IMG/VR virus record: IMGVR_UViG_3300048574_000496
Coordinates: 1-61,342 of that record
Length of the DNA stretch: 61,342 nt
Source: a virus
Taxonomy: Duplodnaviria > Caudoviricetes
Direction: 5' to 3' (one strand)
The notes under the pieces were generated by a model. That model was not told where the DNA came from. It did no database searches and worked only from the letters and a program-made list of their open reading frames with translations. The translations under genes were made by a program, and so were the position numbers. Below, piece after piece: positions 1,228-19,458 of the stretch (its first letter is position 1; the number at the start of each line of letters is the position of its first letter).

Positions 1228-1304
1228 GGACGGGTAGCTCAGCTGGATAGAGCGTTGGCCTCCGAAGCCAAAGGTCGCGGGTTCGAATCCCGCCTCGTTC
1301 ACCA
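1228..1304 (+). tRNA. tRNA-Arg (anticodon CCG)
   Basis: Cloverleaf: acceptor GGACGGG/CTCGTTC, D arm GCTC/GAGC, anticodon stem TTGGC/GCCAA with loop CTCCGAA, T arm GCGGG-TTCGAAT-CCCGC, encoded CCA. Confidence 0.97.
1257..1304 (+). repeat. att core (48 bp, tRNA-proximal copy) of the integrated island
   Basis: Identical to 19411-19458 (GGCCTCCGAAGCC...GTTCACCA). Confidence 0.95.
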
Positions 1305-1310
1305 ATAATT

Positions 1311-1347
1311 AAAGCCACTTAGCAACTTTTTGCTAAGTGGCTTTTTT
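1311..1347 (+). terminator. Rho-independent terminator after tRNA-Arg
   Basis: AAAGCCACTTAGCA / TGCTAAGTGGCTTT stem followed by a T run; near-identical hairpin at about 19467-19502. Confidence 0.8.
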
Positions 1348-1352
1348 CATTT

Positions 1353-1371
1353 TGTGCCCCTATTGTGCCCC
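1353..1371. promoter_or_regulatory. Putative integrase arm-type sites (TGTGCCCC x2, 11-bp period)
   Basis: Same pair at 19266-19284 and inverted at 19186-19204, i.e. at both element ends. Confidence 0.7.
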
Positions 1372-1432
1372 AGGTCTCCAAAAAGTCTTTTCTGGGGGGG
1401 TGGTTTGCGTTGATGTATCGGTGCCATCGGGT

Positions 1433-1815
1433 GACCGACATCTCCTCGCCGGTCTACTGCCTGCTGGCCGTGTTGTCGAACCTGGAAGCGCCGCAGCGCC
1501 TCTGGCTGGAGAGCCAGAGTTGTGGCCGTTGCCGCTTTCCCTCTTTGGTGTCGGCCGGTTCACGCTGCTGCCGCTGTGGCGTCCGTCCCCACTGGTGTTG
1601 AAAAAGAAAGGCCAGGCCGGCGCGGTGTCGCGTGGTCTGCCGCGGTCCGATTGTGCTTGGTGATCCGCCGCGCCGCCGGCCTGATCGCTCGACCGACATC
1701 CTCTCGGCGGTCTACTGCCTGCTGGCCGTGTTGTCGAACCTGGAAGCGCCGCCGGGACCCCTGGCCGGCGCGCCTGAGTTGCCCGTTGCCGATTTCTCTC
1801 TTTGTTGCCTGGCCG
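1433..1815 (+). repeat. Imperfect ~120-bp direct repeat pair with a 45-bp identical core (1450-1494, 1708-1752)
   Basis: CGGTCTACTGCCTGCTGGCCGTGTTGTCGAACCTGGAAGCGCCGC twice, 258 bp apart, flanks also similar. Confidence 0.85.
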
Positions 1816-2174
1816 CTGTTGTGTCCATCTTCCGGCCCGGTGTCGTGGCGGGCGACCGTGGTGATCCAGACCGCCGCAGTTGATTATTTCACTGGTCGCG
1901 AATATAGGATTGCCGGATTGATCCCGTGTCAGTCCAGCGGAAAGGGCTGGGCGAGAAGCCAAAAAAGAAGAAACGGCGTGCAAAAGAAACGAAAAAACAT
2001 GGTGCCATCAAAGGCGTAAGAACGAAAAACCATTGTTTTGTGATGGATTCAGTCGGTCAGTTTCCGCCTCGATGTTTCTGTTGTGTTTCCTGGGCGCAAG
2101 TGCAGGGGGGTGGGGTAGGTGGTAGTCGGAGTCAAGAATGCCGTTTTGCCTCCCGCGCTTTTCTTCGTTTTTAC

Positions 2175-3196: not shown

Positions 3197-3775
3197 TTAC
3201 CTGTTCATTGATTTCGTGCGAGAGTGTCGCGGGGGGAAATCCACCACCGACGGGTAGCCGGTCGCGGCATGGATCGCCGCGCCGATGGCCCAGCCTTCAG
3301 CCACGCAGACCGGCCAATCTGGTTCAGGTGGGCCGCCAACGAGGCCCAGCAGGCCAGAGACGGCGCCGCCTTTCAAAAACCTCTTCTGTCCTTGCTGGCT
3401 AATCGTCTGAAAGGGAAAACCACACTCTCCGTGTCGCACATTGGAACCAGCAGCAGGCGGCCCTCTTGACAGAGCCCGTTATCTTCGCCCTTGCCGGCAA
3501 GATAGGGGTGGTCACGATTTGCCGGGCCGGCCGCTTCCCACCGTCGGACAGCCTCAGCGGCGGCCGCCTCCCGATCCGGCCGCCGCTGGCTGTTTGTCTC
3601 TTTGGTTCGTTTCTCTGGAGCCGGTTGAGTGCGGCCCATCAGCGGCAGACGCTCAGGCCAGAGTCCGCGGGCACGCAAGGCGCTGATAACATCCTGATTG
3701 GAGCATCCGGCCCAGCATTTCACCACTGGCCGCAGGTTGTCGCCCGGGGCGCGGGCTATCGTTTCGATAGTCTCA
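3197..3775 (-). pseudogene. Degenerate Zn-finger/Toprim primase (TraC-like), split across frames and truncated
   Basis: VKCWAGC..DVISALRARGLW and HPYL..KG in ORF 3373-3726; Toprim motif VAEGWAIGAAIHAATG in a different frame (3197-3439); first half of the Zn finger missing. Confidence 0.65.
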
Positions 3776-4102
3776 TCACGCGCTTCCCTTCCTCAGGTGG
3801 GCTCGATGAATGGTTGTCTCTATGTTGTCGGCAAGGGTGTAGACAATTTCGCCCAGCTCTTCGATGGCGGTGTACAGGGCAAAGAGGGTGGGTGTCGTAA
3901 CGAGTTGATGCATGCGGCAGTCGTTGCACGGTTCGTGTGGAGCCTCTTTTTCAAGGAGTTGCGCTTGAACTGCAGTCATGATCGTGCCGATCCTGGCGAC
4001 CGAGGTTCCGATGGCGCGGATCCGGTCTGCGGCCGAAGCCACGTCCCTTTGTTCAAGTGCGGAAAGCGTGGTTAGTGTTCCTGGCTGCTGTATTGCGTTC
4101 AT
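3776..4102 (-). CDS. Hypothetical satellite protein (CxxC)
   Basis: Start overlaps the upstream stop (ATGA); resembles 5481-5831. Confidence 0.6.
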   Translation of the reverse strand: MNAIQQPGTLTTLSALEQRDVASAADRIRAIGTSVARIGTIMTAVQAQLLEKEAPHEPCNDCRMHQLVTTPTLFALYTAIEELGEIVYTLADNIETTIHRAHLRKGSA

Positions 4103-4494
4103 GACCTGACCTCCCGCCCCGTTTTTATAGGCTCCCGTTTTGCGAGGTCACGGGGTAGTATGTGGCAGGCGTTAAGGCGGCGTTCCAGTTCCCCCCATGT
4201 CGTGCTGAGGTTTTCTCGATGCTCGTTGATTATCATCTGAATTTCCTTGATCAGATCCGTCGCTACCGAAAGCGCCCACCCTATATGTTCCTCACTAATC
4301 ATGAACTTGTCGGATGATGGATCCTGGCAACCTGATATCAGGTGAATGACGGCATTCAGTTTGTCGAGGGGCTCTTCCGGTTCGCCATCACCGTGCACAA
4401 ATCCCAGGTGTAGGTTGGATAACAGTTCGCTGGTGCTAATGATCGCTCTTTGTTGTTCCTGGCCTGCGTGTGCTGCTGGTGTATGACCGTTCAT
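4099..4494 (-). CDS. Hypothetical satellite protein, paralog of the C-terminal part of 4491-5174
   Basis: EPEEPLDK..AV...SGCQD...WAL vs EPYEPIDK..AV...MGCQD...WAL; ATGA overlap. Confidence 0.65.
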   Translation of the reverse strand: MNGHTPAAHAGQEQQRAIISTSELLSNLHLGFVHGDGEPEEPLDKLNAVIHLISGCQDPSSDKFMISEEHIGWALSVATDLIKEIQMIINEHRENLSTTWGELERRLNACHILPRDLAKREPIKTGREVRS

Positions 4495-5174
4495 TGCTGC
4501 ACCTTCTGTCCCGTTCTCCTGTGGGGCGTCTCGCCGCAGTCATGGCCCACCAAAAAATAGGGCGCAAGCCGGTTGCTGATCTCCTCATAAAGGGTATGGC
4601 AATGGTCCTGGTATACCTCGGCCCGTTTTCCTGCTTCAATCAGGAGGTCAGACAGGAGAATCAGGGCCCAGGTTACATCATTAGGGTAAAGCCTGATTAT
4701 ACTGGTTTCCTTATCCTGGCAGCCCATGAGCATGCTAACAACGGCTTTGGCTTTGTCGATGGGCTCGTAAGGCTCTTGCAATTGCTCCCCAGCTGATGTG
4801 CAATATGGGCTCAATCCGTCCATGATTTTATCGGCGTCAATGCATGACGTCCCCTCGGCAGTACTCCTGTCGGCGGTCGCCAGCTGTATGACCTGGCGGC
4901 GATAATCCTCCAAGTGTGCCTTGGCCACTGCAAGCGTTTGGGTCAGGGATGTATCCTGCGATTGCGGAATCATGGATTTGCCGTTTTTGCCGGCGTTATT
5001 TTTACCGTGCTGCCGGCGGAGACGTTTTAAGCCTCGGTTCACCATGGCGATGGTGTCGGCAATGTCGATGGCTTTGGCTACATCGTGATGGTGGCCGCCG
5101 TCGGCGACCGTTGGGTTATTCGTTCCATAGTCGGCAACTGCTGACAAGGCGGGAAGGCTGTTGGTTTTGGCCAT
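4491..5174 (-). CDS. Hypothetical protein, first gene downstream of the C4-like switch (longer frame from 5339 has an Ash-like N-terminus)
   Basis: AGGAGA SD upstream of ATG 5174 (MAKTNS); the in-frame extension runs through the RNA structure. Confidence 0.6.
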   Translation of the reverse strand: MAKTNSLPALSAVADYGTNNPTVADGGHHHDVAKAIDIADTIAMVNRGLKRLRRQHGKNNAGKNGKSMIPQSQDTSLTQTLAVAKAHLEDYRRQVIQLATADRSTAEGTSCIDADKIMDGLSPYCTSAGEQLQEPYEPIDKAKAVVSMLMGCQDKETSIIRLYPNDVTWALILLSDLLIEAGKRAEVYQDHCHTLYEEISNRLAPYFLVGHDCGETPHRRTGQKVQQ

Positions 5175-5223
5175 ACATAGTTCTCCTATTGGTAGTTTTT
5201 TTGCGCTTTCCAGAACGCAAAAA

Positions 5224-5294
5224 GGGCGGGTTAGTGCGGGCTGGAAAATGGCAATAGGCAACCATCGGGCCGAGGCCCCCCGCACAGCCCGCCC
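5224..5294 (-). ncRNA. C4/CI-like antisense RNA (P1/P7 immI or P4 type)
   Basis: Closing stem GGGCGGG-CT-GTGCGGG / CCCGCAC-TAA-CCCGCCC enclosing GCCTATT and TTTCCAG, complementary to boxes repeated upstream (5364-5370, 5378-5384) and downstream (5185-5190, 5207-5213). Confidence 0.72.
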
Positions 5295-5416
5295 AAAGAA
5301 AAGAGCAATCCTGTGCACTGGACGCAAAAAAACCGCCAAACATAGAGTGGTGGCGGTGCGTCCGCCTATTATTCAGGTTTCCAGGCCCGACAACCGTTTT
5401 TTGCGGCTGCAGTGAT

Positions 5417-5480: not shown

Positions 5481-5831
5481 TTATTGCCCCTCCGCCTCTG
5501 GATTGCTCTCTTTCCGCCCCGGCAACCCGTTTCTGGTTTCGCTGGCCAGAAGGTGGGAATACTGAGTCAATGCCCGCACCACTTGGTAAAGCCCTGCTAC
5601 GGTGTCTCCGCCACCAAGAATGTCATGCCACTCGCCGCATTCCTCGCAACGCGGTCGAGCCTTGGTTAAAGAAATGAAATTTAACACCTTGTTGACCGCG
5701 CCGATAGCCTCGCTGTTGTCCTGGATCTGCTCCAGGTTCTCCTGAATCCAATCTTCGGGGAGTTCTACGGTGACCCCTTTGAGCATTTCGGGGGTGAGGT
5801 TGATTGTGCCAAAGTCTTGCATTTTGTCCAT
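5481..5831 (-). CDS. Hypothetical protein (CEEC motif) downstream of the tape measure gene
   Basis: GAGG SD, 26 bp after the TMP stop. Confidence 0.65.
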   Translation of the reverse strand: MDKMQDFGTINLTPEMLKGVTVELPEDWIQENLEQIQDNSEAIGAVNKVLNFISLTKARPRCEECGEWHDILGGGDTVAGLYQVVRALTQYSHLLASETRNGLPGRKESNPEAEGQ

Positions 5832-5857: not shown

Positions 5858-8614
5858 TTATCTGTTGCTGCTGCGGCGTTGGTTGTAATTGTCGACCGCC
5901 CTGATAAGCTGGGGGATATGTTCCTTTCCGATCACCATCGGATGTGGCTTGGTGCTTCCGGGCAGGGTCAAATTGAGATTGATCGTCTCGGACGGAGTGG
6001 GGGCGTCCGCCAGGCCGCCTTGTTGGAACCGCTGATGTGCCGAATTGTTAGCTAGGGCAATCAGGCCGCCGATCCTTGCTTTGACAGTGTTGATATTGGT
6101 GATGCTCATGGCGTTAAGGGCCTGAAGGTATCCCACGCCATACCGTGCCACCGCTTCCTTCCGGACCACAAATTCACCCGGCTCCAGCAGCGCCCGCACC
6201 CGGTCACCGCCGCCGTATCCAGACAGCTTGCCGCCCCGGGCCAATTTGTGCACCACGCCGCCCAGGGCCTTGGTCTGTACCTGGTTGATGTAGACTTGCA
6301 TCGTTCGGTCGGCGAACGTCTTATCGAGCAGGCGGCCGGCTTCATCGGTGACCTGAACGAACATGCCCTGCATCTCCAGGACAGATTCCTCCCAGGATTT
6401 GACCGGCATGGTGATGGTCCGCATCACTGGAACGATCTCTTCTTTGACCTTTGTCTTGATCCCTTCAATGCTCTTCGTAACCGCTTCAAGCTGCCCGGCA
6501 AGTTCAGGGGCGCTTTTTTTGAGATCTTCGAGGAGCGCACCGCCGGTTTCCTTGTTGAGCGCCGCCGCGGCCGTGCTGATGGACTGGGCCTGCTGGGTGA
6601 GAATGTCCGCCTTGAGCTTGCCCGCGCGTTCGACGCCTGTCATTGCGGTTTTCAAGGCCTCACCAGAGCTAATGGCGATCTGGTCGCCACTCTTGACCTC
6701 GGTGTTCAATTCACGGTAGGCCGTTTTCGCCTTCTGAGCGTATTCCACCGCTACGGCGAAGCTCTCCTTGCCGGTTTCGACATTTCCGGCAGCAAAGGCG
6801 GCTTTAGCCCCCTCCGCCGCCTTTTTGGCGGCTGCCTCGAACTCTGCCGCCTCTTTCTTCTGATCTTTCCAGGCCGAGACGTCGGACATTCCGGTTCGGG
6901 ACATGCTGCGCAGCTCTTCGGAAAGAGATCGCGTTTCGTTGGCGATCTCTCCCTGCAGCTTCTTCACTTCGTCCGCATAGTCTTTGTACTTCTTTTTCAT
7001 CTCGTCCAAGGCCTTGCCGGTGACCTGTTTTTGTTCGGTCGCCGAAGAACCGGCGGCAACCGCAGCCCGCGCATGGACAACCTTGGCGGCAACGCCGTAT
7101 TCATTCATGGCCTTCTCGATTTCTGACAGCTTGCCCTTGGCGGCAGCGAGTTCGACGGTTGCCTGCCGGGCGCCTTCTGTTTGAGATCCCCACATGTTTG
7201 TTTCTCGGGAGGCGATGTAGAGCGATTGCACAATAGCGGCCTGGTATTTGTACGCGCCCTCCAGCTTCTTTTTGTAGCTCTCCAGTTCCCTTTCCGATTT
7301 GGCAAACATGGATTCCTTGGTTTCGGGGGTGAATCCGGCGAACTGACGGAATTTTGCTGTAGTGGCATCGATTTCAAGCTGCAGTTTGCGCAAATCCCGT
7401 TCTGCCGGCTCGGTGGCTTTGTAAATGCGCTCGCCGATATTCATGCCGGCGAGAAACCCCAGGGTTGAGCCTGCCGCCGCGCCCAGCGCTCCAGATAGTC
7501 CCATAGCTGACACCTTGGCCATATCAAGGTTTACGTGGAGTTTGGACAGGTACGGAATCAGTTGTAATCCAGTCATGACAACCATGGCGGCGTTCAAACC
7601 CTTCCATACCCCGGTTAATAGGGCAATGGTTCGAGATAAAGCGGACATCGCAACCAATCCGCCAGCTACCTTGGCGGCTGCCTCGCCGTGGTTAACCGCG
7701 AAATTCAAAACCGCTTCAGATAGTGTGAAAAACTTAGAGGCCAGGTCGGTGATGGTTTCCTTCATGGCAGGATCGTTCATTGCTGCGGTGACGTCTTTGA
7801 TCTTTCCTGTTGCCAGGTCCATAAACCCAGATTCGCCGATCGCAATTCGCAGATCAAACCATGCGTTCTTGAACCGGTTTAGTGCGGCCACCGGACCATC
7901 GGCGCCATCTATTGCACCTTTGCCAAATGCTTTGTGAAGCTCTGCGGCCAATTTCGGAAGCATGTCAACAGCAGCCACCTCGCCATTTTGCAGGAGTTTG
8001 TCAAGCTCCTGCGTAGTTACTCCCATTGCACGGGCCGCTATTTGGAAGGCTCCTGGCAACCGTTCACCTAATTGTCCGCGCAACTCCTCAGCGCTGACGT
8101 TGCCCTTGCTTATCATTTGGCTGATTGCGAGTAGTGACCCTTGGGTTTCTTCGGTTGACATGCCTAGGGCTGTGGATGCCTCAGAAACGGCAAGGAATAT
8201 GTCGCGGGTGGCTTTGCCCTCAAGAACCGTGCCCCTGGAGGCTGCAGACAACAATTTGAACGCATCGGCTGTACTGGTAAATTCCAGGCCCAATTCTTCA
8301 GCCGTGGACCGCACGAATGCGAGCTCCTGCTTAGCGGCTTCGGCTGATCCCGTGATAGTCGTGAAGGCCTTTTCAAGCTGGTCCATCTTTGTACCAGCGT
8401 CAAAGATTGATTTTGCGAAGACGGTCGCCGAAATGCCTCCGAATAGCCCAGCGAACTTCCCAGCTATCCCGGCAAGGCCAGCGTCAAGCTCCCTGACCCC
8501 TTTGGTCGATGTTCCAATCTGTTCTTGAAACACCTTCCACCCCTTGGTGGCCTTGCCGATCCCGCTGGTAAATGGGCTGGGGTTTAAAGAGAGAACGAAT
8601 TCAATGTCTTTCAT
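5858..8614 (-). CDS. Phage tail tape measure protein (918 aa) in the satellite
   Basis: Tape-measure domain AISQMISKGNVSAEELRGQLGERLPGA, Ala-rich helical body, hydrophobic segment, C-terminal GG...GGGDRVRALLEPGEFVVRKEAV motif. Confidence 0.92.
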   Translation of the reverse strand: MKDIEFVLSLNPSPFTSGIGKATKGWKVFQEQIGTSTKGVRELDAGLAGIAGKFAGLFGGISATVFAKSIFDAGTKMDQLEKAFTTITGSAEAAKQELAFVRSTAEELGLEFTSTADAFKLLSAASRGTVLEGKATRDIFLAVSEASTALGMSTEETQGSLLAISQMISKGNVSAEELRGQLGERLPGAFQIAARAMGVTTQELDKLLQNGEVAAVDMLPKLAAELHKAFGKGAIDGADGPVAALNRFKNAWFDLRIAIGESGFMDLATGKIKDVTAAMNDPAMKETITDLASKFFTLSEAVLNFAVNHGEAAAKVAGGLVAMSALSRTIALLTGVWKGLNAAMVVMTGLQLIPYLSKLHVNLDMAKVSAMGLSGALGAAAGSTLGFLAGMNIGERIYKATEPAERDLRKLQLEIDATTAKFRQFAGFTPETKESMFAKSERELESYKKKLEGAYKYQAAIVQSLYIASRETNMWGSQTEGARQATVELAAAKGKLSEIEKAMNEYGVAAKVVHARAAVAAGSSATEQKQVTGKALDEMKKKYKDYADEVKKLQGEIANETRSLSEELRSMSRTGMSDVSAWKDQKKEAAEFEAAAKKAAEGAKAAFAAGNVETGKESFAVAVEYAQKAKTAYRELNTEVKSGDQIAISSGEALKTAMTGVERAGKLKADILTQQAQSISTAAAALNKETGGALLEDLKKSAPELAGQLEAVTKSIEGIKTKVKEEIVPVMRTITMPVKSWEESVLEMQGMFVQVTDEAGRLLDKTFADRTMQVYINQVQTKALGGVVHKLARGGKLSGYGGGDRVRALLEPGEFVVRKEAVARYGVGYLQALNAMSITNINTVKARIGGLIALANNSAHQRFQQGGLADAPTPSETINLNLTLPGSTKPHPMVIGKEHIPQLIRAVDNYNQRRSSNR

Positions 8615-8616
8615 TC

Positions 8617-8740
8617 TTAATCATCTCCAAAGGTTTCTTCTATTGCGGTAAGGAAAAAGCTGAATCCATATTCCCAAACCCGGTGGTGGCCAGCGGATAT
8701 CATTGCGCAGATAACCCGGTCAAGTTGTCTGCGGAACTGA
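8617..8740 (-). CDS. -1 frame extension of the tail assembly chaperone (gpGT-like C-terminus)
   Basis: Open -1 frame RRQLDRVICAMISAGHHRVWEYGFSFFLTAIEETFGDD* fills the gap and stops 2 nt before the TMP start; no canonical slippery heptamer seen. Confidence 0.55.
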
Positions 8741-9059
8741 GAAGGTGAGCAAGGCGGTCGGAAGCCTCGATCCTCCTCTGGATCATCGAGGCTAAGGAAG
8801 GGTTTACTTGTGCCACCTCGGCACAGAGTGTCACTAGTTCTGAAGGTTTGGCCTCTTCAAGTTGTTCAATCGGTATCCCGGTGCACTCTGTGACAATCAA
8901 GGCGGGAACAGAGTGATTTATCAGGTCGTCCATAAATTGCGCCCCCTCTTTGTTGAGACGCTCAAACACTTCCCGAACCTGCTTAACGGTCAACTCTTTA
9001 ATGGTCACGGTCTGTCCTTGGAATGTTGCGGTAGTCGTGTCTTGCATGGTGTGTGTCAT
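8700..9059 (-). CDS. Putative tail assembly chaperone
   Basis: Immediately upstream of TMP; VTIKELTVKQVRE...LEEAKPSEL...VNP pattern; ATGA-coupled to the upstream ORF. Confidence 0.68.
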   Translation of the reverse strand: MTHTMQDTTTATFQGQTVTIKELTVKQVREVFERLNKEGAQFMDDLINHSVPALIVTECTGIPIEQLEEAKPSELVTLCAEVAQVNPSLASMIQRRIEASDRLAHLLSSADNLTGLSAQ

Positions 9060-9430
9060 CCTTGGGCTCTTGCCCTGTTTATGTTGCTGCCTTTCCTGTC
9101 CCTATCAAAGGGGTTTAGGTCTGCAGTTGAAAGCCTCACTATCGCCCCCTTATCCCCCTTGCTGAATGTATTCAGGGCGAAAAGATGTTGAATCCTTAAG
9201 AAAACGCCGGGTGTTGTCTCGATTTGGAGACAACACCCGGCGCGCATGCCCCCTGGGGGTGGGTAAAATCTCCACGCCCATATAGCTGGTAACCGGTCTG
9301 CAGTTTTCTTGCGGTGTTGGCAAAATTGGGCAAGGGGGGTATTAATCCTTTTTTCTGTGTAACTTGTTGTAATCAATGTATAATTATCAGTGTTCATGGT
9401 TTTGCCGTTTGCGTTATTGTTTTTTCGCAA
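9056..9430 (-). CDS. Hypothetical protein
   Basis: Fills the operon between 9394-10071 and the chaperone; true start may be the second ATG. Confidence 0.45.
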   Translation of the reverse strand: MRKNNNANGKTMNTDNYTLITTSYTEKRINTPLAQFCQHRKKTADRLPAIWAWRFYPPPGGMRAGCCLQIETTPGVFLRIQHLFALNTFSKGDKGAIVRLSTADLNPFDRDRKGSNINRARAQG

Positions 9431-10071
9431 TACCGGAAAGTGAAGGCTATTGCGCCCTTGTCATTGATGGTGACCAGCACCTGCTCGCGCGTCCAGACTG
9501 GAAGCCAGGCAAGGCCCCATTGGCCATAAGGCCACCGAAATTTCGACCGGCCAACCAAAGCGGCCATAGTCCACCCGGCCGCCAGGAGTTGTGCCTTGTT
9601 CTCCTTGATCCACGGCCAAGCCGCCCGGAAGTATTTCCGCTGCTGGTCAGTGACCGGATCGGGTTTCTTATCCCCCTGCAGGGCCTCGGGGAGATCGTAG
9701 TTGACCGGGACCAATTCACAGTCCGCCTGGGTGCGCTTGCTCATTCTGCCTGCGGCCTCCACCGGTTGCCCCTCAATCCCTGGCTGGCAGGTTGTGCAGA
9801 AGAAGCCGCCGCCGCGACCTGCCACGAACAATCGCCCATAACAGATGGGGCAGGGGTGCAGGAAAGCAAGGCGCTCAGGTTTTGGCTGCGGTGCGGGGTG
9901 TTTACTCTGCGTCCTCTTGCTACCTTCTTGCCGGCCGGGTGTGTTTTTGCTCCGAGGTGGATCGAATTCCCCGCTTTTTGGTGGGGAATCCTGTGATTTT
10001 TTCAGACCACCCACGGGGGTGATAGGGGCCATCCCCGTGGCCAGCTGCTCAATTGCGTCGAATAATCCCAT
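9394..10071 (-). CDS. Hypothetical Zn-finger protein downstream of the origin
   Basis: CPIC...CTTC motif; C-terminal LLAAGWT...WGLAWL. Confidence 0.6.
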   Translation of the reverse strand: MGLFDAIEQLATGMAPITPVGGLKKSQDSPPKSGEFDPPRSKNTPGRQEGSKRTQSKHPAPQPKPERLAFLHPCPICYGRLFVAGRGGGFFCTTCQPGIEGQPVEAAGRMSKRTQADCELVPVNYDLPEALQGDKKPDPVTDQQRKYFRAAWPWIKENKAQLLAAGWTMAALVGRSKFRWPYGQWGLAWLPVWTREQVLVTINDKGAIAFTFRYCEKTITQTAKP

Positions 10072-10152
10072 TTCCACACCTGCTTTTTCTTTGGTATTCC
10101 TCCCCTTGTTGGGGCAATTTCATGCGCAAACCCTGGGAAAATCCTTTGGCAA

Positions 10153-10490: not shown

Positions 10491-13091
10491 TCAATGTTCA
10501 TCTGGGGCGACCATTGCCAAGTCACTGTTTTTCTGAAACCATTCAAGGCAAAAAGCCCAAACCCTTCTTTGTGTCGGTCGCCCCGTTTCTGGAGCGTTTT
10601 GGGGTGTGGGGAAGCGATAATTTAGGCTGTTTCGGATATAAGCTGGGTGTTCTTGCAGGGCTCTGGTGAGTTGCTCGCTTACCTGAAAACTCATCCCCCG
10701 ATTGCTCCGGAGGATGCGTTCAACCTCTGGCAAGTTCACCAGAATCATTTTTCTTTCAGTGTTGATATGGTAAGCGGTTGGGTGCTCCCTGGTGTCGATG
10801 AGGTCGAGTTGTTCAAAAGCATGGTCTGCAATGGTGGTTTTTCTAATTGCACTGGTAACGCATTTCTTCCGCCCAATTTCGGCCATGAACCCTGTTGCTT
10901 GGGGTTCGGTGTCTATATCGAAGCACGAACAGAACAAGCGATAGAAAGCCAGAATGAGGGCGTGGTTGTCGAGTATGCGGCGTTCAGCCATAGGGCGGAG
11001 TGCCGCTTGTGCGGCCGTGTACTCATTATGCCAGTTTTTGAAGTGTGCTCTCTTGATGAGCGCCTGTTGCATGATGCCGGCAATCTCCCGCTTGTCGATG
11101 GCGGTCAATTTTTCGTAGGCGGCCCGTGTGCTGTCGCTGATAGCTTCGGTTTTGAATTCAAGGCTGATGGTTCGCTGCTTTTCTGCCTTGCTGTTGAATG
11201 GCTCTATGTTTTGTGAAAAGAGCAGGGTGCCAAGGAATGGGTTTTCCCTGGTGGACAGGTCGTTGGAAAAAGAGGCCTGCACCTGTAGCGGGCCTCGGTT
11301 GTAGGCGGTCAGAATGATGCTGTAGTCAAAGCCTTTCTCGTTCCTGTCGTTGTCCTCAAGGAGTGCAGTGAATAACCCGGAGACTTGGCCTATGGTACGA
11401 ATAGCGCCTTTTTTCGTGTTCAGCTGTGTGACGGGTAGGCCTTCGCCCTCTCGGCCCTGGATATTGTTCAGCAGGGTTACCAAGGCGCTTTTGCCGCTGG
11501 CCGGATCACCAAACAGGGATAGGAACGGGAAATAGTTGGTTTCTGCCTTCACCTGGTTGACGAACCACCCGGCAACAGTCCAGGAAAGGGCGACGATACC
11601 ATTAAGTCCCCACGCCTCCCGAATGAGCCGGTATATCTCTTTGGCCCGCTTCTTGGTGATTGGTGCCGGTTGTATGGATTTGCTTTCCCCATGATGAGGG
11701 GGTTTGAAGTATTGATTGTGACCAAGCTGGAACAGGCCGCGTTTGTTTGGTGTGGCAAGGTTTCCGGACGCATCGACCGCCCACCGGTTGAAAATGTAGT
11801 GCCCGCACTCCAGTTGGTACCCGGTAACAGTGAGCAGCAGCACCTCGGGGGCCGCCTTGTCGCCAGTTATTTTTGTCTGCAGGGCGGTTGCCGCTTTGGG
11901 GTCCCCTTCCCAGTTAATTTTTGCCGTGGAAAGCAGGAACTCATTCAAAGCCCTGGCGCTTGATATCTCTTTGCCGGTAGCGGTCACCTCAACCGGGCGA
12001 CCTTTGGCTGGTTGCACTGCAAGGTTGTAGTGGTATTCCGGCTTGGCTGGGTTGGTGCGGTCCACGATATAGCTGAGCACCTTGATTGTTCCCCGGATAC
12101 AGATGGAGGCGGCAACGTAAGGCTCTGCCGCTTCGTTGCGTGGGGTTTTAATTATTGAATAGTAGGTTGCTCGGGCGAAGGTGAACAGGCCGGGCGGCTT
12201 GCCGTAAAACCGGTAGTAGATGGTGGCAAAATCATTAGCATCCGTTGCCAGGGCTAGGGTGCCGTTATTCCGGTACCGGGGAAGGTTTTGCTCGAACTGT
12301 TCTTTGACCTTGGTAATTGGTCCGGCGTTTAAGATATCATTCCAATCCTGACCGGAATCGCAAAGGATAACCTCTGATTCCGGGTAAAAGACTCTCCACT
12401 TCCTGCAGGCTTGGTAACCAGCTTCGTCATTGTCGAATGCCAGGACCAAGTTTTGAAAAGAAGACAAATCGACCTTGGCCGGATCCTGGCCGGAAGCGAG
12501 AACGGCGATAGCCTGCTTGCCCATTTCGAGAAGGGAAAGTGCGTCAAGGATGCCCTCAGTGATAAATGTTTTCTGATTGGGGTTATAAGGTATTGACGGG
12601 TGTTGCCAGTGTAGCCCAGTGGTTGAGCCGACATTGTGGGTTTTACCCTCACCCGGTGGCGGGCTGAAAAGCCGCCCGTTCAAAATCTCCTTGCCGTCCT
12701 GGCTGGTGGCCACGGGGAACATGACGGCTCCTGATCCGGTCTTTCTGGCGTCCTTCATGTAACGGAAGTCAAGTCCGGTCAGCACATGGGAAAGGCCCCT
12801 TGATTTCAGGTATTCACGCGCCGGGCGGTGTGGATCGTCTTTGGTTGCGGGGAAATCGCGCTCGATGTCCCGGCGAATCTCTGGGAAAATATCAAGCGTC
12901 TTTGTACGTGCTCCGCATTGCGACATGCGGTTGCAGTTGATGGCCATGGGGCTTGATGCGTATGCCCAGGCGTTTTTGTCGCCGCACGCGGGGCAGGTTA
13001 AACCCTGGATGGTGTTGTTTGCTGCCCTGGTCTTTGAAGTCCAATACACTGAGGTTTTCAGGGCCTCTTTGATCTTCTCATCTAACGCCAT
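10491..13091 (-). CDS. Zn-finger/Toprim primase fused to a P-loop helicase (satellite replication protein)
   Basis: CPAC...C..C Zn finger, Toprim ITEGILDALSL and AFDND, Walker A GDPASGKS. Confidence 0.88.
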   Translation of the reverse strand: MALDEKIKEALKTSVYWTSKTRAANNTIQGLTCPACGDKNAWAYASSPMAINCNRMSQCGARTKTLDIFPEIRRDIERDFPATKDDPHRPAREYLKSRGLSHVLTGLDFRYMKDARKTGSGAVMFPVATSQDGKEILNGRLFSPPPGEGKTHNVGSTTGLHWQHPSIPYNPNQKTFITEGILDALSLLEMGKQAIAVLASGQDPAKVDLSSFQNLVLAFDNDEAGYQACRKWRVFYPESEVILCDSGQDWNDILNAGPITKVKEQFEQNLPRYRNNGTLALATDANDFATIYYRFYGKPPGLFTFARATYYSIIKTPRNEAAEPYVAASICIRGTIKVLSYIVDRTNPAKPEYHYNLAVQPAKGRPVEVTATGKEISSARALNEFLLSTAKINWEGDPKAATALQTKITGDKAAPEVLLLTVTGYQLECGHYIFNRWAVDASGNLATPNKRGLFQLGHNQYFKPPHHGESKSIQPAPITKKRAKEIYRLIREAWGLNGIVALSWTVAGWFVNQVKAETNYFPFLSLFGDPASGKSALVTLLNNIQGREGEGLPVTQLNTKKGAIRTIGQVSGLFTALLEDNDRNEKGFDYSIILTAYNRGPLQVQASFSNDLSTRENPFLGTLLFSQNIEPFNSKAEKQRTISLEFKTEAISDSTRAAYEKLTAIDKREIAGIMQQALIKRAHFKNWHNEYTAAQAALRPMAERRILDNHALILAFYRLFCSCFDIDTEPQATGFMAEIGRKKCVTSAIRKTTIADHAFEQLDLIDTREHPTAYHINTERKMILVNLPEVERILRSNRGMSFQVSEQLTRALQEHPAYIRNSLNYRFPTPQNAPETGRPTQRRVWAFCLEWFQKNSDLAMVAPDEH

Positions 13092-13494: not shown

Positions 13495-13818
13495 TTAATT
13501 GCAGGAAGGGTCAAAAATTTTAACCTCTACTCCGTTCGCCCACTTATCAAGCCATGGGATGGTGTAATAAACTCGCGAACCAATTTTTTTATACTTGGGT
13601 CCACGGGATTGGCAGCGATATACCTCAAGGCTGCTTGCTGCGGTCGGTATTCCTTTGATTTTGGTAAGATAGGCGGACGCCTGTTTGGTGGTGATGGCTT
13701 CGGGATTGGTAATCCCGAACTGTTTGAATGATTCTTCTGTTTGAGGGGAGATGCTTTCTGGGTTGGTGGTCCGGGCTTGCTGATGGAATGTTCCGGTTAA
13801 ATTAGAATCCTGTTTCAT
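13495..13818 (-). CDS. AlpA/excisionase-like DNA-binding protein
   Basis: ITTKQASAYL...SLEVYRCQSRGPKYKKIGSRVYY..LDKW pattern; GAAGG SD. Confidence 0.75.
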   Translation of the reverse strand: MKQDSNLTGTFHQQARTTNPESISPQTEESFKQFGITNPEAITTKQASAYLTKIKGIPTAASSLEVYRCQSRGPKYKKIGSRVYYTIPWLDKWANGVEVKIFDPSCN

Positions 13819-15270: not shown

Positions 15271-16344
15271 TCAATCCTTAAAATAATACACAGCCCTATC
15301 GGGAATCGAATTCATTTCCCCTGTTTTCCAGTCAATAAGGTTGTAGGTTCCCGCATCGTTGGGGAATTGAAAATATCGAACTCCGTCTTCGTACAGTTTG
15401 TTTTTCGAACCGCCCACCTCGGCAATAACTTTGATGGCGTGGATCTTTTTAGTGTTGTTCGTCCAGTCTATTTTCAGGGTCTTGCTGAAAAAACCGCTCA
15501 ACTCTGCATGGCACACGTTTCCGTACAACCCGTTCAGTGCTATTACGAAAGCGCTGGGAAAATCGATTGTTCTCGGGGTGTGCGTTTCCTGCTTGTTTGG
15601 TGCAGGGCGCTGAAGTGGTGCAGGGCGTTGAGGCTCTGGTTGTGGTGTGAGTCGCTCTTGTGGCGTTGGTGGAATTGGTGTCTTTTGCCCGTTGTCGTGA
15701 TCGCATTTACCGAGCAGGTAAATGGTGAAGAAAAGAATAAAGGCCCACCCCATGCACCCAAGCGGTTTTCTCGGTGAATTATTTGCAGATTTGCGTAAAG
15801 GATTCTCTTTTTTAATTCGTTCTCCGCAAAGAGGGCAGTTCTCTGCATTTCTAGAGATTGGTTTTTTACAGGTTGGGCAACTGATGAGCTTTGACGATGT
15901 GTTTTCTTCCCTTGGATCGTCAGACAAATTGTCAGGCGGATCAACCTCCATGATACGGTCCATGGAGATGGCTTCACCGGTTTCGGCATCAACAATGCCT
16001 CCTTGGATGCGATCAAATCGAAAGGTCCTTGCCTCTTGTCTTGTCAGGCAAAACCCGTTGATGTACCAGAGCTGAGCATATAAAAATCGAATTGGGTTCT
16101 TGATCTGCCTCGATGATTTGTTTTCACGAGCATCTTCATAATCAAAGGCAATAACCGGTGGCCTTCGGTTGACCCTTTGGCGTTTTCCTTCCTCATCCCA
16201 TGCTTGCTGTTTTTCTTGCTCTTTTTTTTCCTGCAGAACAACACGCTCCGCTTTTTCGTAAATAACCCCGCAGTTAAGGCACTCTGCCCCTTCGTTCTTC
16301 TCAGTGCCGCACTTGACGCAATGAGTGAACGATTCTTCAAGCAT
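15271..16344 (-). CDS. Zn-ribbon / WYL-like / Zn-ribbon / transmembrane protein
   Basis: CVKC..CLNC; FDYED...RQI.NP...WYINGFCLTRQEARTFRFDRI (WYL-like); CPTC..CPLC; hydrophobic MGWAFILFFTIYLLG; Pro-rich linker. Confidence 0.75.
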   Translation of the reverse strand: MLEESFTHCVKCGTEKNEGAECLNCGVIYEKAERVVLQEKKEQEKQQAWDEEGKRQRVNRRPPVIAFDYEDARENKSSRQIKNPIRFLYAQLWYINGFCLTRQEARTFRFDRIQGGIVDAETGEAISMDRIMEVDPPDNLSDDPREENTSSKLISCPTCKKPISRNAENCPLCGERIKKENPLRKSANNSPRKPLGCMGWAFILFFTIYLLGKCDHDNGQKTPIPPTPQERLTPQPEPQRPAPLQRPAPNKQETHTPRTIDFPSAFVIALNGLYGNVCHAELSGFFSKTLKIDWTNNTKKIHAIKVIAEVGGSKNKLYEDGVRYFQFPNDAGTYNLIDWKTGEMNSIPDRAVYYFKD

Positions 16345-16674
16345 GGTCTGGTTCCTGCTGGTTGTTTATTTTACGCATTTGCACACCCGTAAAGTGAATT
16401 GTGGCAAATCATATGGTTGCAGTCGGATATTTGGCACAATTCGCCGTCAGTCCCTAGCATTCATCCTTCGTGCTCTAGCGTACCATTATTCCCTTCTTTT
16501 TCCCCAGCCGCCGATGTGTGGGCGGTGTTGCCATGCTGTTTGCTGCTGCGGAGTGCATGATGCTTGCCTGGCCGCCTTTTCCGTTTGTGCCTCACCCAAT
16601 ATGCACAAAATTATTTGTGACTCATATTTTCAATTTCATAAACATCAAACTGTTTTGTGTTGCATCTGTGAGCT

Positions 16675-17796
16675 TCAAAAAACCTCTCGGCCTTCGGCAA
16701 TATTCAAGAGCGCATGGTATGCCAACACCGCTGCCCTGCTGCCACTGCTCTCTGTCATGGTCCGCAATACATCATTGGCTTTTAACACGTTCAGTATCCT
16801 CTGGGCCGTTGGCTTTGGGATTGCTGAGGTGTTGACAAAATCAGAGCTTTTGAAAATGGGCCGCTCAAATATCCAGTCCAGGGCATGAATGGCATACTGG
16901 GAATGGGTCAGCTCAACAAATCCGGTTTTCATTCGGTTGTACAGATCCAGGATGGCCCCAGCCTTTTTCAGATTTTCTTCCGCCTGCTGTTGAACGGCGG
17001 TGAGAAAGAAGACGCACCAGCCTGTCCAGTCATAATCTTGAGATACCGCCAACAGTCTGTCATAATAGGTGTCGCGGTTGGCCTCGAGATAGGCGCTGAT
17101 ATAGAACATGGGCCGCTGGATAAGGCCGGCCTGGTGCATGAACAAGGGAATAAGCATGCGCCCTAACCGTCCGTTTCCGTCGAGGAATGGATGCAGTGCC
17201 TCGAATTCGGCATGGAGGATAGCGAGCTGAATTAATCGATCAGGGGCGGGTGTATGGATGTAGCGCTCCCAGGTAGACATGGCCTCGGGTAATGCATCCG
17301 CGCCGATAGGGACGAAGCGAGCTTCCTCGATACTGCAGCCATGCGGGCCAATCCAATTCGGGATGCGCCGATATTCTCCTGGTGATTTGCCATGCCCCCG
17401 GACGCCAGAAAGCAAAACCTTGTGGGCTTCGCGAATAACCCGCTGAGACAGGGGGAGCTCTTGCAACATGCCCTCCGCGGCACGCATGGCCTTCCGGTAA
17501 TTAAGGACCTCCCAGATGTCAGCCTCTTTCGGTGTAGTTGGGTCTCCGGAATCGCCTTTGGCTTCATACTCCAAAACCTCGCCCATTGTGGCCTGGGTGC
17601 CCTCGATCCGTGAAGAAAGAACCGCCTCCTGAGTCGTGAGCGGGCTCATCAATACCGATGCGTTGGGAATCGCGGCCAACAGCCCGTCATACCGTGCAAC
17701 GGCAGCGTTGGCCGAACCAATCAGGGTGATGAGTCGTTGCCAGTCCAGCTTTTCCGGCGGGAAGTTTCCTTTGTGATACTTGACGGCTTCGGGCAT
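16675..17796 (-). CDS. Fic family protein with N-terminal extension
   Basis: HPFLDGNGRLGR Fic motif; EAVLSSRIEGT inhibitory-type motif. Confidence 0.92.
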   Translation of the reverse strand: MPEAVKYHKGNFPPEKLDWQRLITLIGSANAAVARYDGLLAAIPNASVLMSPLTTQEAVLSSRIEGTQATMGEVLEYEAKGDSGDPTTPKEADIWEVLNYRKAMRAAEGMLQELPLSQRVIREAHKVLLSGVRGHGKSPGEYRRIPNWIGPHGCSIEEARFVPIGADALPEAMSTWERYIHTPAPDRLIQLAILHAEFEALHPFLDGNGRLGRMLIPLFMHQAGLIQRPMFYISAYLEANRDTYYDRLLAVSQDYDWTGWCVFFLTAVQQQAEENLKKAGAILDLYNRMKTGFVELTHSQYAIHALDWIFERPIFKSSDFVNTSAIPKPTAQRILNVLKANDVLRTMTESSGSRAAVLAYHALLNIAEGREVF

Positions 17797-17886
17797 TGTT
17801 CGTTCCTCGGTGCTTTCGGTTGTCTCGGTGAAATTTTACGGATGTATTCGCGTGGCGCCGTAAACTTCATCGTAATTCGCCATAGT

Positions 17887-19131
17887 TCAGTTTTTTCCGC
17901 GCCGGTTGGCCACCTTCTTCTCTTCCTTCTCACCGGCGGCAGCCGTATGGGCGGTGATGATCTCCGCCGCCCGATCTGCGGCCCGCTGCTGCGCTTCCGG
18001 CAGGAAATGAGCGTACCGGCGGGTGATGTCGCTGCTCTTGTGGGTAAGCAACTGACCGATCTGGTCCAGGTTGAATTCCCCGGAGCTGGCCAAGAGAACG
18101 GCGTAATGGTGGCGGAGCCCGTGGAACGGGCGGAAGTTCTTGGGCAGTTCCGCTGCCTTTTTGATGCGGTCAACGGCTCCACACTCAACCCGCTGGCCGC
18201 CAAGGACTCCAGGGAAAAGGAAACCGTTGTCTTCCCAATCCGGAGCTTTCCGGGTGGTGTTGCGGTATCGCTTGGCGCGCCGGGCCTGCTCGTCATCCAA
18301 AAAGGCAAGCTGCTGTTCAAGCAGCTCCCGGACCGGCGGCGACATGGGCACGGTAACGTCTTGGCCGCCCTTGGGGCCGGAGATGGTGATCAGGCTATGG
18401 TGAAAATCAAGATGCTCCTGTTTGAGCCGAAACAATTCCCCCCGGCGCAGTCCGGAGAACATGGCGAGCTTCACCATGCGCGCCACATCCTGCCGGGGCC
18501 AATTGTTCAGGGTATCGAGCAGGCGGGCGGCTTCTTCTGGAGTAAGGAACTCGGTTTTGGTGTTGTGAACCTTGGGGAATTGAATCTTAAACGATAGGCG
18601 GGGGCAAAGGCTATGCTCAGCGCCATGGTTGACAACGCGCCGGAGCAACCGCAAGGCGTGGTCAATAGTGGCTGGAGCAAGCTCCTTTTCTTTCATGTTA
18701 CGCTTGATTCGCTCAATATCGAGTTGAGAAAGCTCCTTTGGGCTTTTGGCTTCCAGGAACGCAAGGTGATGCTCCCAGCGGCTAAGGTCTTGTGTCTTGC
18801 CTTTGATGGCGCCGCCCTTGGTGCTGCTGAAATAGTGATCCTTGATTTCTTTCAGGTCGCGATTGACTTTGCGGTGTTCTGCTCGAATGTCGCGGCTCGT
18901 TTTGACTTCACCTTGATGGCGGGCTTCTCTGATCCGTTTCGCCCTTAATTCAGCAGCAAGCTGAGGCGTGTATCCTTCGGAAATCCACCCGACTTTTTCA
19001 GTGGTCTTTTTGCCGTCTACCTTGAAGGTGACGTACAGGCAAACATCTGGTTTGCCGTTAAAGCGTTTGGTGGCGGAATCATACCCAAAAACGCCTTGGT
19101 GTTTTTTGATAGGATATTTCTTTGAGGGCAT
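17887..19131 (-). CDS. Tyrosine recombinase/integrase of the island
   Basis: SGLRRGE (R), K, FHGLRH (HxxR), LTH...RRYAH (H, Y); adjacent to att. Confidence 0.94.
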   Translation of the reverse strand: MPSKKYPIKKHQGVFGYDSATKRFNGKPDVCLYVTFKVDGKKTTEKVGWISEGYTPQLAAELRAKRIREARHQGEVKTSRDIRAEHRKVNRDLKEIKDHYFSSTKGGAIKGKTQDLSRWEHHLAFLEAKSPKELSQLDIERIKRNMKEKELAPATIDHALRLLRRVVNHGAEHSLCPRLSFKIQFPKVHNTKTEFLTPEEAARLLDTLNNWPRQDVARMVKLAMFSGLRRGELFRLKQEHLDFHHSLITISGPKGGQDVTVPMSPPVRELLEQQLAFLDDEQARRAKRYRNTTRKAPDWEDNGFLFPGVLGGQRVECGAVDRIKKAAELPKNFRPFHGLRHHYAVLLASSGEFNLDQIGQLLTHKSSDITRRYAHFLPEAQQRAADRAAEIITAHTAAAGEKEEKKVANRRGKN

Positions 19132-19410
19132 ATGCTGTTTGTCAGTCTTGCAAGTTATTGTATTTTATGTTTTTATTGTGGAATTGGGGCACAATGGGGG
19201 CACAAAAACAGATTTTCCGGGGTAGCTGCCTTGGCCTCTTGTCTGTGTTGCAGGTTCGTTTTTTTTGTGCCCCTATTGTGCCCCTCTAGGTTAAAAAACT
19301 ATAAAAAGCGCAGGTTGTGTAGGGAATATAGTAAACTTGCTGTGTCGATGAAACAACAAAATAATGCGCTATTAAATCCCATTAAACAGTATATGAAGCA
19401 ATCAAGGCAG

Positions 19411-19458
19411 GGCCTCCGAAGCCAAAGGTCGCGGGTTCGAATCCCGCCTCGTTCACCA
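19411..19458 (+). repeat. att core (48 bp, integrase-proximal copy; 3' half of tRNA-Arg CCG)
   Basis: Identical to 1257-1304; tRNA 5' half absent. Confidence 0.95.

Follow-up and report, generated by a model that had tools for sequence, protein, structure and literature searches.

What use is a tape measure protein to a mobile element in which no head gene can be recognized? The question is raised by an island of about 18 kb (positions 1257–19458) in the IMG/VR virus record IMGVR_UViG_3300048574_000496, whose whole stretch of 61,342 nt was analyzed here and is called the window below. The island is inserted in a gene for tRNA-Arg(CCG), and its recognizable virion genes are those of a tail assembly chaperone (TAC) and a tape measure protein (TMP). 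Related loci are given L-numbers, and G001, G002 and G003 are the whole genomes that carry islands L009, L008 and L004, respectively. Based on our analysis, the island may be an integrative, self-replicating satellite of a Desulfobulbaceae-type host that builds chimeric tails on a helper phage, and we assign this reading a probability of roughly 0.55.

The TMP is an intact protein of 918 aa, as the first-pass annotation of this DNA had claimed. It scored 96.7 bits against PF20155 (TMP_3), for which the cut-off is 41, over residues 68–255, and it matched 24 PHROG families, 21 of which are named TMP; among the 31 matches listed for its database relatives, 25 span 87% or more of the query length. 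The gene lies directly downstream of a TAC gene with a frameshift signal, and its long, intact product has a homolog in the TMP of a true tailed phage (L016, described below). Nei-Gojobori estimates on codon alignments gave a ratio of nonsynonymous to synonymous substitution (dN/dS) for the TMP of 0.137 between the window and L085 (dS 0.75, dN 0.10), 0.099 between L008 and L009, and 0.078 between the window and L086, with dS saturated in the last pair. For the TAC, three window pairs and the pair of L008 and L009 gave 0.15–0.21. The cassette of TAC, frameshift extension (T) and TMP is under purifying selection, and the neutral decay for which an examination of TMP orthologs had been proposed is excluded by the range of 0.08–0.14.

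The TAC open reading frame (ORF) scored 23.5 bits against PF10109 (TAC_7), under the cut-off of 25; its match to phrog_7608 has no function name, and a sequence search of the PDB gave no match better than E 0.3. Despite the sub-threshold Pfam score, the identity of the chaperone is supported by a conserved −1 frameshift signal. The in-frame heptamer A AAC CCY (A AAC CCT in the window) occurs at the same V/I/L-N-P codons in all 11 elements of the family delimited below, and the open extension behind it has 61–91 codons. In seven loci examined codon by codon, the codon before the heptamer ends in A for Val, Ile or Leu, and this A-ending codon whatever the amino acid points to selection on the nucleotides. 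All-frame translation of the TAC–TMP junction in the window and six relatives revealed a peptide in the extension, LDRxIC.MI..GHHRVWEYGF.FFLTA, which is kept in 11 of 11 elements and ends just before the TMP start. In the window, the stop codon of the extension has its last nucleotide at 8617, leaving 2 nt to the TMP start codon at 8614, and the predicted frameshift product would have 86 + 61 = 147 aa. The chaperone is real and is predicted to frameshift like the G/GT proteins of lambda. It had been described earlier as an intact protein of 119 aa; its nature and intactness stand, but the length probably does not, since relatives align from residue 20 and translation thus probably starts at Met5, giving 115 aa.

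The cassette recurs in other genomes. A contig scan with the single TMP as query found no relative; one that took a TMP alignment as query, over one genome per species, gave 79 loci; about 10 of the 79 match most of the TMP length, and most of the others match only the TMP_3 core. With the window proteins as tblastn queries, the order integrase–o107–primase–o227–TAC–TMP, or the part of it held on the contig, was found in L001–L004, L008 and L009. These loci are in sequences assigned to Desulfobulbaceae or Desulfobulbus, except L001, which is assigned to an uncultured delta proteobacterium; L009 is from Desulfobulbus rhabdoformis DSM 8777. Metagenome and IMG/VR scans added L083/84/85, L086, L087 and the viral record L089. 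L083, L084 and L085 represent a single element and are counted once; the identity between its TMP and that of the window is 84%. The genome search for similar islands that had been recommended therefore resulted in 11 distinct elements, mostly from Desulfobulbaceae, with primase–o227–TAC–TMP in common: the window, L001–L004, L008, L009, L083/84/85, L086, L087 and L089. A one-off deletion remnant is ruled out by this recurrence together with the purifying selection. The elements are inserted in tRNA-Arg(CCG), in tRNA-Arg(TCT) (L003 and L087) or in tRNA-Leu(GAG) (L004, an 18.3-kb repeat-bounded element), and they have integrases of two clusters. The primase–o227 interval of L004 and L008 contains origin-type repeats of another sequence at the same position.

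A chosen set of island ORFs of at least 75 aa was scanned one by one against Pfam and PHROGs, and no head, portal, large terminase (TerL), tube, tip or lysis family was found; likewise, 49 further ORFs of L083, L086, L087 and L089 contained no head or packaging family, all 16 matched families having been inspected. This agrees with the first-pass statement that no capsid, portal, terminase, tube, tip or lysis gene is recognizable, and the search for hidden structural genes that it called for (profiles, and the folds of o227 and o116) found none, although such blanks do not show the proteins to be non-structural. The further statement that TAC and TMP are the only virion genes holds for the window at the level of profiles, but not for the family, in which four of the 11 elements (L008, L009, L083–85 and L089) have in addition a Neck1 or minor-tail gene. 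In L008, L009 and L083–85, this gene of 281–283 aa lies directly upstream of the TAC and matches phrog_1924 (‘minor tail protein’; 5e-38 in L008, 3.3e-39 at best in the alignment scan) and phrog_27 (‘tail completion or Neck1’); its dN/dS between L008 and L009 was 0.072, with dS saturated. At the Neck1 position of L089 there is a 216-aa ORF weakly similar to the Neck1 protein of phage L016 (E 1e-4), which is probably the second phrog_27 match of the alignment scan, a scan that does not name the matching member. The PDB sequence search gave nothing better than E 0.3 for the L008 Neck1-like protein and for the tube candidate of L171. A Neck1 remnant was sought in the window by tblastn at E ≤ 10 and nothing credible appeared; the nucleotide homology between the window and L085 begins at the TAC.

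The small protein o116, encoded behind the TMP, qualifies the same statement further. It has only 11 relatives among 1.84 billion representatives, and three of the 11 have an N-terminal copy of the TMP C-terminal motif LPGYGGGDR..EPGEFV in front of the o116 domain. In L008, the gene after the TMP (12444–13070) encodes 208 aa consisting of a second copy of this motif and an o116 domain, a duplication-fusion. These gene fusions with the TMP-end motif link o116 to the TMP. Its dN/dS was 0.28 between the window and L085, and its structural model had no BFVD fold match at E ≤ 0.001 in Foldseek, a blank that does not show it to be non-structural. As judged from the gene sequences, the tail cassette of the family is slightly larger than two genes and variable, always without a tube, tip or head gene.

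The remainder of the island has the anatomy of an integrative element (Table 1). An exact 48-nt attachment (att) repeat sits at both ends, within a 97-nt repeat of 90% identity that spans the tRNA terminator, and all credible genes between the att copies are on the minus strand, so the 18-kb element bounded by att sites and the co-oriented gene run described in the first-pass annotation are both upheld. From attR, the order is integrase, Fic, WYL/zinc-ribbon protein, ORFs in an AT-rich stretch, o107, primase-helicase, iteron origin, o227, TAC, TMP, o116, a C4-type RNA locus, o282, o131, o108, a second-primase remnant and an HTH_17 gene. The integrase and the primase-helicase claimed earlier have clear matches (PF00589 and phrog_1; phrog_1139 and Toprim_2). 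The iteron origin is borne out as well: with one mismatch allowed, the motif GCTGCACCCA has 16 matches in the window, 12 of them clustered at the origin, and none of 100 shuffles reached 16. The AlpA-like helix-turn-helix (HTH) protein, in contrast, was not sustained, since o107 has no match in Pfam or PHROGs, and a clear excisionase-type HTH is found instead in the HTH_17 protein. L002 and L009 have homologs of o107 upstream of their primase genes, and AlpA itself (PF05930) is present in two relatives among the matches listed.

The tandem TTGTGCCCC 9-mers near both ends of the island are putative integrase arm-type sites; the motif also adjoins the tRNA in L087. The lineage-specific zinc-ribbon protein o227 has 58 homologs, of which the named ones are from Desulfobulbus; its AlphaFold2 (AF2) model (pLDDT 74.0) gave nothing at E ≤ 0.001 in Foldseek against the PDB and a best Z of 4.2 in VIA-align, which does not show it to be non-structural. 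The SoFic model matches the Fic protein over its full length (residues 6–367 of 373; PADLOC), and cargo in the relatives, among the matches listed, includes RexA, toxin-antitoxin pairs, methylases and KilA-N. The second primase, split over two frames in the window versus one in L008 and L009, is intact in L008, L009 and L083 (729–730 aa; Toprim_3 and DUF3631, domains read on the L008 protein) and follows the o282-family genes; L004 has an NrS-1-type primase-helicase and RexA instead.

Table 1. Positions of the island and prophage features in the window, or in the related locus named.
Feature	Position	Strand	Basis
tRNA-Arg(CCG)	1228–1304	+	ARAGORN; Rfam tRNA 70.2 bits
attL core, last 48 nt of tRNA-Arg(CCG)	1257–1304	+	exact direct repeat
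Tandem TTGTGCCCC 9-mers	1352–1371; same pair at 19265–19284, upstream of integrase	+	repeat family, sequence reading
HTH_17/excisionase-family DNA-binding protein, 113 aa	2845–3186	−	PF12728 7.4e-9; phrog_66 2.2e-9
Second-primase N-terminal remnant, split over two frames	3197–3726	−	phrog_2249 matches
o108, small helical protein	3776–4102	−	conserved in L008, L083–85 (tblastn, 68–69% identity)
o131, o282 paralog	4099–4494	−	clusters with o282; 92% identity to L085
o282 family gene, first after C4-like RNA	4491–5174	−	family in 7 loci
P1-type C4 antisense RNA	5221–5299	−	Rfam, below cut-off
a1/b1 target and isrK-like element, upstream of C4	5326–5423	−	Rfam, below cut-offs
o116, small helical-hairpin protein with CxxC motif	5481–5831	−	AF2 model, pLDDT 73.9
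TMP, 918 aa, intact	5858–8614	−	PF20155 1.8e-27; phrog_2335 3.2e-58
−1 frame T extension, 61 codons and stop	8617–8802	−	frame translation, conserved peptide
Slippery heptamer A AAC CCT, in phase with TAC frame	8799–8805	−	conserved across relatives
TAC, ORF of 119 aa	8700–9059	−	PF10109 23.5 bits, 5.7e-5; phrog_7608 4.6e-9
o227, zinc-ribbon protein adjoining origin	9394–10077	−	in 11 of 11 elements
Iteron origin, AT-rich core flanked by (A/G)CTGCACCCA iterons (12, of either orientation)	10152–10475		motif count
Primase-helicase, 866 aa	10491–13091	−	phrog_1139 1.7e-88; Toprim_2/3
o107, small protein at AlpA position	13495–13818	−	AlpA likeness from position and reading by eye
WYL and zinc-ribbon protein, cargo or regulator	15271–16344	−	PF13280 1.1e-8; PADLOC WYL 3.3e-11
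SoFic-type Fic protein, predicted anti-phage defense cargo	16675–17796	−	PADLOC SoFic 9e-111; Fic_N and Fic
Tyrosine integrase, 414 aa	17887–19131	−	PF00589 1.1e-19; phrog_1 3.1e-52
attR core, displaced 3′ 48 nt of tRNA-Arg(CCG)	19411–19458	+	exact direct repeat
Mu-like prophage: Dam-like methylase, 276 aa	20600–21430		named from sequence and tblastn homologs alone
Mu-like prophage: J-like fiber protein	21736–25137		
Mu-like prophage: TMP, 1199 aa	28211–31810		
Mu-like prophage: TAC	31991–32440		
Mu-like prophage: tube-like protein	32444–33412		
Mu-like prophage: Mu-type major head protein	34648–35541		phrog_371 7e-123
Mu-like prophage: MuF-like protein	37649–38461		
Mu-like prophage: portal	38403–39992		
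Mu-like prophage: TerL	40000–41508		
Mu-like prophage: MuA transposase	55786–58071		phrog_310 1e-140
C4, a1/b1 and isrK-like locus	L001 4394–4591		
C4, a1/b1 and isrK-like locus	L003 7305–7515		
C4, a1/b1 and isrK-like locus	L008 13103–13316		
C4, a1/b1 and isrK-like locus	L009 13573–13783		
C4, a1/b1 and isrK-like locus	L086 13215–13409		
C4, a1/b1 and isrK-like locus	L087 5792–5983		

The cassette has relatives in phages. L016, from Desulfocapsa, is a true siphophage with portal, protease, major head protein, Neck1, major tail protein, TAC and a 955-aa TMP that is 36–39% identical to the window TMP over residues 36–907. A prophage of G003 (L171/L172), a genome that also holds island L004, encodes an 838-aa TMP whose C-terminal ~350 aa are 44% identical to the TMP of that island (E 4e-58); the first 44 aa match too, and the L171 TAC is weakly similar (E 2e-4). 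The in-frame A AAC CCT heptamer recurs in both phages, and their T peptide (..C.LI..GH.D.W.Y..) is related to that of the islands. Since all the parts expected to contact other tail components, namely the T peptide and both TMP ends, are common to the islands and to L016 and L171, this siphophage lineage is the likely helper type. An island and an L171-type prophage reside together in one of the three genomes examined, and in G001 and G003 HK97-type capsid and TerL genes are located on other contigs.

Because the element has defined ends and encodes its own replication proteins, we read it as a satellite; the same reading is favored by features typical of such elements, namely SoFic, the RexA, toxin-antitoxin and methylase genes of the relatives, the C4-type RNA and the int-alpA RNA of L008. 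It would sit in tRNA-Arg(CCG) and, judging by its gene set, be excised by the tyrosine integrase with the excisionase-type HTH protein, and its own primase-helicase would replicate it from the 12-iteron origin. Its sole recognizable contribution to the virion would be a tail-length cassette derived from siphophages of the L016/L171 type and composed of the chaperone, the −1 frameshifted chaperone-T form and the 918-aa TMP. When a helper siphophage multiplies, the island TMP would be held by the chaperone of the island while the T peptide recruits the tube protein of the helper, and the TMP ends would dock into the helper tip and terminator. In lambda, the T part is reported to bind the tube protein, and a tail grows by ~0.15 nm per TMP residue; on the latter figure, the island TMP would give the chimeric tails a length of ~140 nm. 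The helper would provide everything else, from heads, tube and tip to terminase and lysis. That the island places its own TMP in helper tails had been proposed in the first-pass annotation; the proposal is plausible and agrees with the recurrence, the selection, the retained frameshift signal and the phage-homologous TMP ends and T peptides. The PLEs of Vibrio provide a published precedent, and by analogy with the PLE–ICP1 system we infer that the island is induced and packaged and that its TMP enters tails.

Several results weigh against this reading. No helper was identified for the window island. Each of G001–G003 has a single TMP_3 match, which is the island’s own, and in G002, whose completeness is not given, no HK97 capsid or terminase was found with the three families searched. 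No terminase small subunit (TerS), cos/pac site or capsid-size gene was recognized, a cos/pac site being unrecognizable without a known helper. The HTH_17 protein also matches a TerS PHROG, weakly (4e-5), and a 157-aa ORF of L004 matches TerS, protease and ATPase PHROGs over one P-loop-like stretch. For 115 accessory ORFs of seven loci, the best 25 of 89 PHROG families and the best 25 of 31 Pfam families were covered, and a hidden head-gene match is possible there. The phage closest at hand is also a poor fit. A complete-looking prophage of a Mu-like transposable siphophage lies at 20600–60860, 1.1 kb beyond attR, and had gone unmentioned when the surroundings of the island were first described. 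The similarity between its TMP and that of the island is confined to the TMP_3 core (215 aa, 42% identity), BLASTP found no similarity between its TAC and that of the island, and no nucleotide similarity was found between island and prophage.

This neighbor is a possible but not a favored helper. As a special case of satellite tail building, the 918-aa island TMP would replace the 1199-aa TMP of the neighbor, which has a complete-looking set of head, tail and transposition genes within reach and a TMP with the same core. The absence of TMP similarity outside that core, the unrelated TACs, the lack of a common nucleotide segment that could serve as pac site, and the presence of related islands in G001–G003, where there is no second TMP_3-type TMP, make this distinctly unlikely. 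Mu-like phages insert almost at random, so that the adjacency may be chance. A search by blastn-short for a pac/cos site shared with the Mu-like prophage gave only chance 15–19-mers.

A different role for the same genes would be that of a defense decoy, in which a non-virion integrative element produces TAC-T and TMP that compete with the counterparts of L016/L171-type phages and spoil their tails, protecting the population alongside SoFic. The cassette is homologous to the phage module exactly at the interaction parts (T peptide and TMP ends), defense cargo lies in the same islands, no packaging function was found in the scans of island ORFs, and interference with tail assembly by island-borne genes is published (as described in PMC11364771), with Rta as another example (as described in PMC12987554). 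We nevertheless consider the decoy unlikely: a TMP and a frameshifted chaperone kept intact with dN/dS of ~0.1 in 11 elements would be a costly poison compared with the 80-aa Rta, and the Neck1/minor-tail gene beside the cassette in four of the 11 suits the building of tails better than their breaking. Still less probable is a role outside the virion altogether, with the TMP-like protein recruited, e.g., as a membrane-spanning conduit or scaffold for transfer or maintenance of the element. The window island has no other virion gene, and o116, o282, o131 and o108 beside the TMP are small helical proteins of no known fold, yet the chaperone keeps a tail-specific −1 frameshift signal with a phage-homologous T peptide, and the homology of the TMP to its counterpart in phage L016 extends along the whole protein. 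There remains a decaying leftover of a degraded prophage fused to an integrative element and devoid of present function. The truncated and frameshifted second primase, the lack of the Neck1 gene of the closest relative and the remnants of older islands beside attR would accord with decay; with TAC and TMP intact in 11 elements, dN/dS of 0.08–0.14 and a slippery site conserved at the nucleotide level, this explanation is largely refuted and has scarcely any chance of being correct.

If the island is indeed a tail-building satellite, it has to be compared with the known satellite families. P4-like elements and the phage-inducible chromosomal islands (PICIs) of Gram-negative hosts integrate in tRNA genes, have a tyrosine integrase, an AlpA/Xis-type regulator and a primase-helicase with an adjacent origin, use antisense-RNA immunity (P4 CI RNA, P1 c4 type), carry defense cargo and measure 10–18 kb. 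The island shares with them the tRNA site, the tyrosine integrase, the primase-helicase with its adjacent origin, a C4-like antisense-RNA locus, the defense cargo and the size. Unlike in P4, none of its ORFs matched a Sid, Psu, Delta or Epsilon family in Pfam or PHROGs, and unlike PICIs it has no recognized TerS (the PHROG match of 4e-5 is weak), Ppi, Rpp or cos site; to our knowledge, P4 and classical PICIs have no tail genes. In contrast to capsid-forming PICIs (cf-PICIs), no capsid, portal, protease or connector genes were found in the window island. The PICI-like elements (PLEs) are equipped with a serine recombinase, an initiator of the RepA_N type and TcaP as capsid scaffold, whereas the island relies on a tyrosine integrase, an iteron origin and a primase-helicase of the Toprim type; some members of the family add the Neck1/minor-tail gene, and the hosts are Desulfobulbaceae.

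The first-pass annotation knew of no described satellite that supplies a TMP, but Vibrio PLEs, EPIPs and some cf-PICIs encode TMPs, as described in PMC12987554 (Nature, 2026) and PMC12822802 (bioRxiv, December 2025). According to the account in PMC12987554, PLE1, PLE4 and PLE11 of Vibrio cholerae parasitize the myophage ICP1 and encode a TAC, a TMP and the hub protein BhuB; their TMP and BhuB replace those of ICP1 in virions, resulting in chimeric tails ~10 nm shorter, and deletion of the PLE tmp gene cuts transduction by 96–99.9%. The discussion of that paper and the legend of its Extended Data Fig. 10 also mention putative tmp genes, both in elements resembling PLEs and in certain cf-PICIs (PMC12987554). 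Compared by description, PLEs and the island are both integrated satellites with no capsid-protein genes, with their own TAC and TMP and with anti-phage functions, and the TAC–TMP gene pair of the PLEs described in PMC12987554 is present in the window island. PLEs differ in supplying a hub, for a helper tail that is contractile, whereas the island has a siphophage-type cassette with a conserved −1 frameshift signal; among island ORFs there was no profile match to a hub or baseplate protein, and the small downstream ORFs are helical with no fold match. EPIPs, TMP-encoding satellites of the Mycolicibacterium aichiense prophage HerbertWM, are likewise small, and the tails of their particles differ in length from those of the helper, as described in PMC12822802. 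In the same description (PMC12822802), they measure 11 kb and have a serine integrase; they further encode a major capsid protein, scaffold, TerS and head-tail adaptors, none of which the island has.

The cassette resembles lambda G/GT–H in its chaperone immediately upstream of the TMP, the −1 frameshift signal near the 3′ end and the T extension ending at the TMP start. L016 and L171 have the same module and the same heptamer, with a TMP homologous over its full length (L016) or at both ends (L171). In phages, as seen in L016, the module is flanked by tube and tip genes and preceded by a complete head module; its neighbors in the islands are the replication origin on one side and, on the other, an operon predicted to be controlled by the C4 RNA. 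The family is set apart from PLE, P4, PICI and cf-PICI; in its proposed working it comes nearest to a PLE, with a P4/PICI-like chassis and a cassette of siphophage type. Our literature search found no paper describing Desulfobulbaceae satellites with a TMP; the proposed mechanism is already published for PLEs, and the island would be a siphophage-type variant of it.

The C4 locus, of P1/P7 type, lies directly behind the TMP or o116 and before the o282-family genes, an unexpected place for an immunity-type RNA switch. In the window, the Rfam scores are below the cut-offs for C4 (RF01695; 32.4 against 45 bits), the isrK-like element (43.7 against 50) and a1/b1 (31.2 against 46.7). At the same position, C4 scored above its cut-off in L003 (61.8 bits), L086 (53.4), L001 (50.5) and L008 (45.2) and reached 42.9–43.3 bits in L009 and L087; Rfam detected none in L002, L004, L083/85 and L089. 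The int-alpA RNA of L008 (1248–1325), between integrase and alpA, scored 37.1 bits against a cut-off of 35.8, and Rfam did not find it in the window. As the Atlas protein entry begins at residue 56, o282 probably starts at Met56 and has 227 aa. No Pfam, PHROG or PADLOC family matched o282 and o131, and look-ups of o282 and o108 in the Atlas gave only matches below 0.9 and generic helical hairpins, which does not show these proteins to be non-structural.

Both flanks of the island contain further repeats. At 19459–19700, beyond attR, there is a terminator with tandem TTGCTACCC 9-mers, and positions 19590–19637 of this stretch correspond to the 3′ 48 nt of tRNA-Arg(TCT), with 45 of 48 nt identical to the tRNA of L003; the 5′ half of that tRNA is lacking, and the fragment is followed by a terminator and the arm motif TTTTGTGCCCC. 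This suggests that the attR-side remnants are those of older related islands and that the site has undergone repeated integration and decay. On the attL side, two repeat pairs are spaced by 257–258 nt (1426–1494/1684–1752, 91%; 2180–2266/2437–2523, 79%) in an apparently non-coding stretch from attL to the HTH gene. TRF found only a small 10-nt array there and Rfam no match, and these repeats may be a packaging or regulatory site.

With regard to the Mu-like prophage, homologs of its Dam-like methylase, 39–44% identical, are found by tblastn at the same place in Mu-like IMG/VR loci, and it contains a block of low-GC cargo at ~44–51 kb. Another prophage, L169 (contig C131 of G001, D. rhabdoformis), encodes an 1803-aa TMP whose C-terminus is 53% identical to the window Mu-like TMP and a J-like protein 47% identical over its full length to the J-like protein of the window prophage; by these sequence matches, a Mu-like and a non-Mu-like phage of related hosts have the tail-tip module in common. 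In L006 (9164–19270) and L007, from Desulfobacterium/Desulfobacteraceae, a related TAC, which has the T peptide but lacks the A AAC CCY heptamer, is present with an 890-aa TMP; behind them come a putative 872-aa tail protein and other ORFs, and a ClpB-like host gene adjoins. No primase or head gene was found in the 10-kb flanks, and this cluster may be a tail-only (tailocin-like) element or a prophage end.

For the family as a whole, we tentatively propose, at somewhat less than even odds, that capsid-less satellites of the sulfate-reducing Desulfobulbaceae parasitize siphophages through the tail only, supplying the TMP, the frameshifting chaperone and in some members a tail-completion protein and taking the rest from the helper. 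Before 2025–2026, satellites were believed to act on heads and packaging alone, and the tail piracy of PLEs concerns one myophage system in one pathogen. If the proposal is true, chimeric-tail piracy would for the first time be known from outside Vibrio and with a cassette of siphophage type, and a second, unrelated family, resident in environmental anaerobes, would make the supply of a TMP a general strategy of satellites rather than a Vibrio oddity. Since the TMP is the conduit for DNA ejection, such a satellite would carry its own entry device and could enter cells that exclude the helper, and through the P1-type C4 RNA located behind the TMP, the immunity switch of the satellite and its tail production would be linked. 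The conserved T peptide and TMP ends would serve as handles for finding helpers by sequence. The carrier of L009 is a culture-collection strain, DSM 8777, and tests of tail length, proteome and transduction are therefore feasible in a cultured host.

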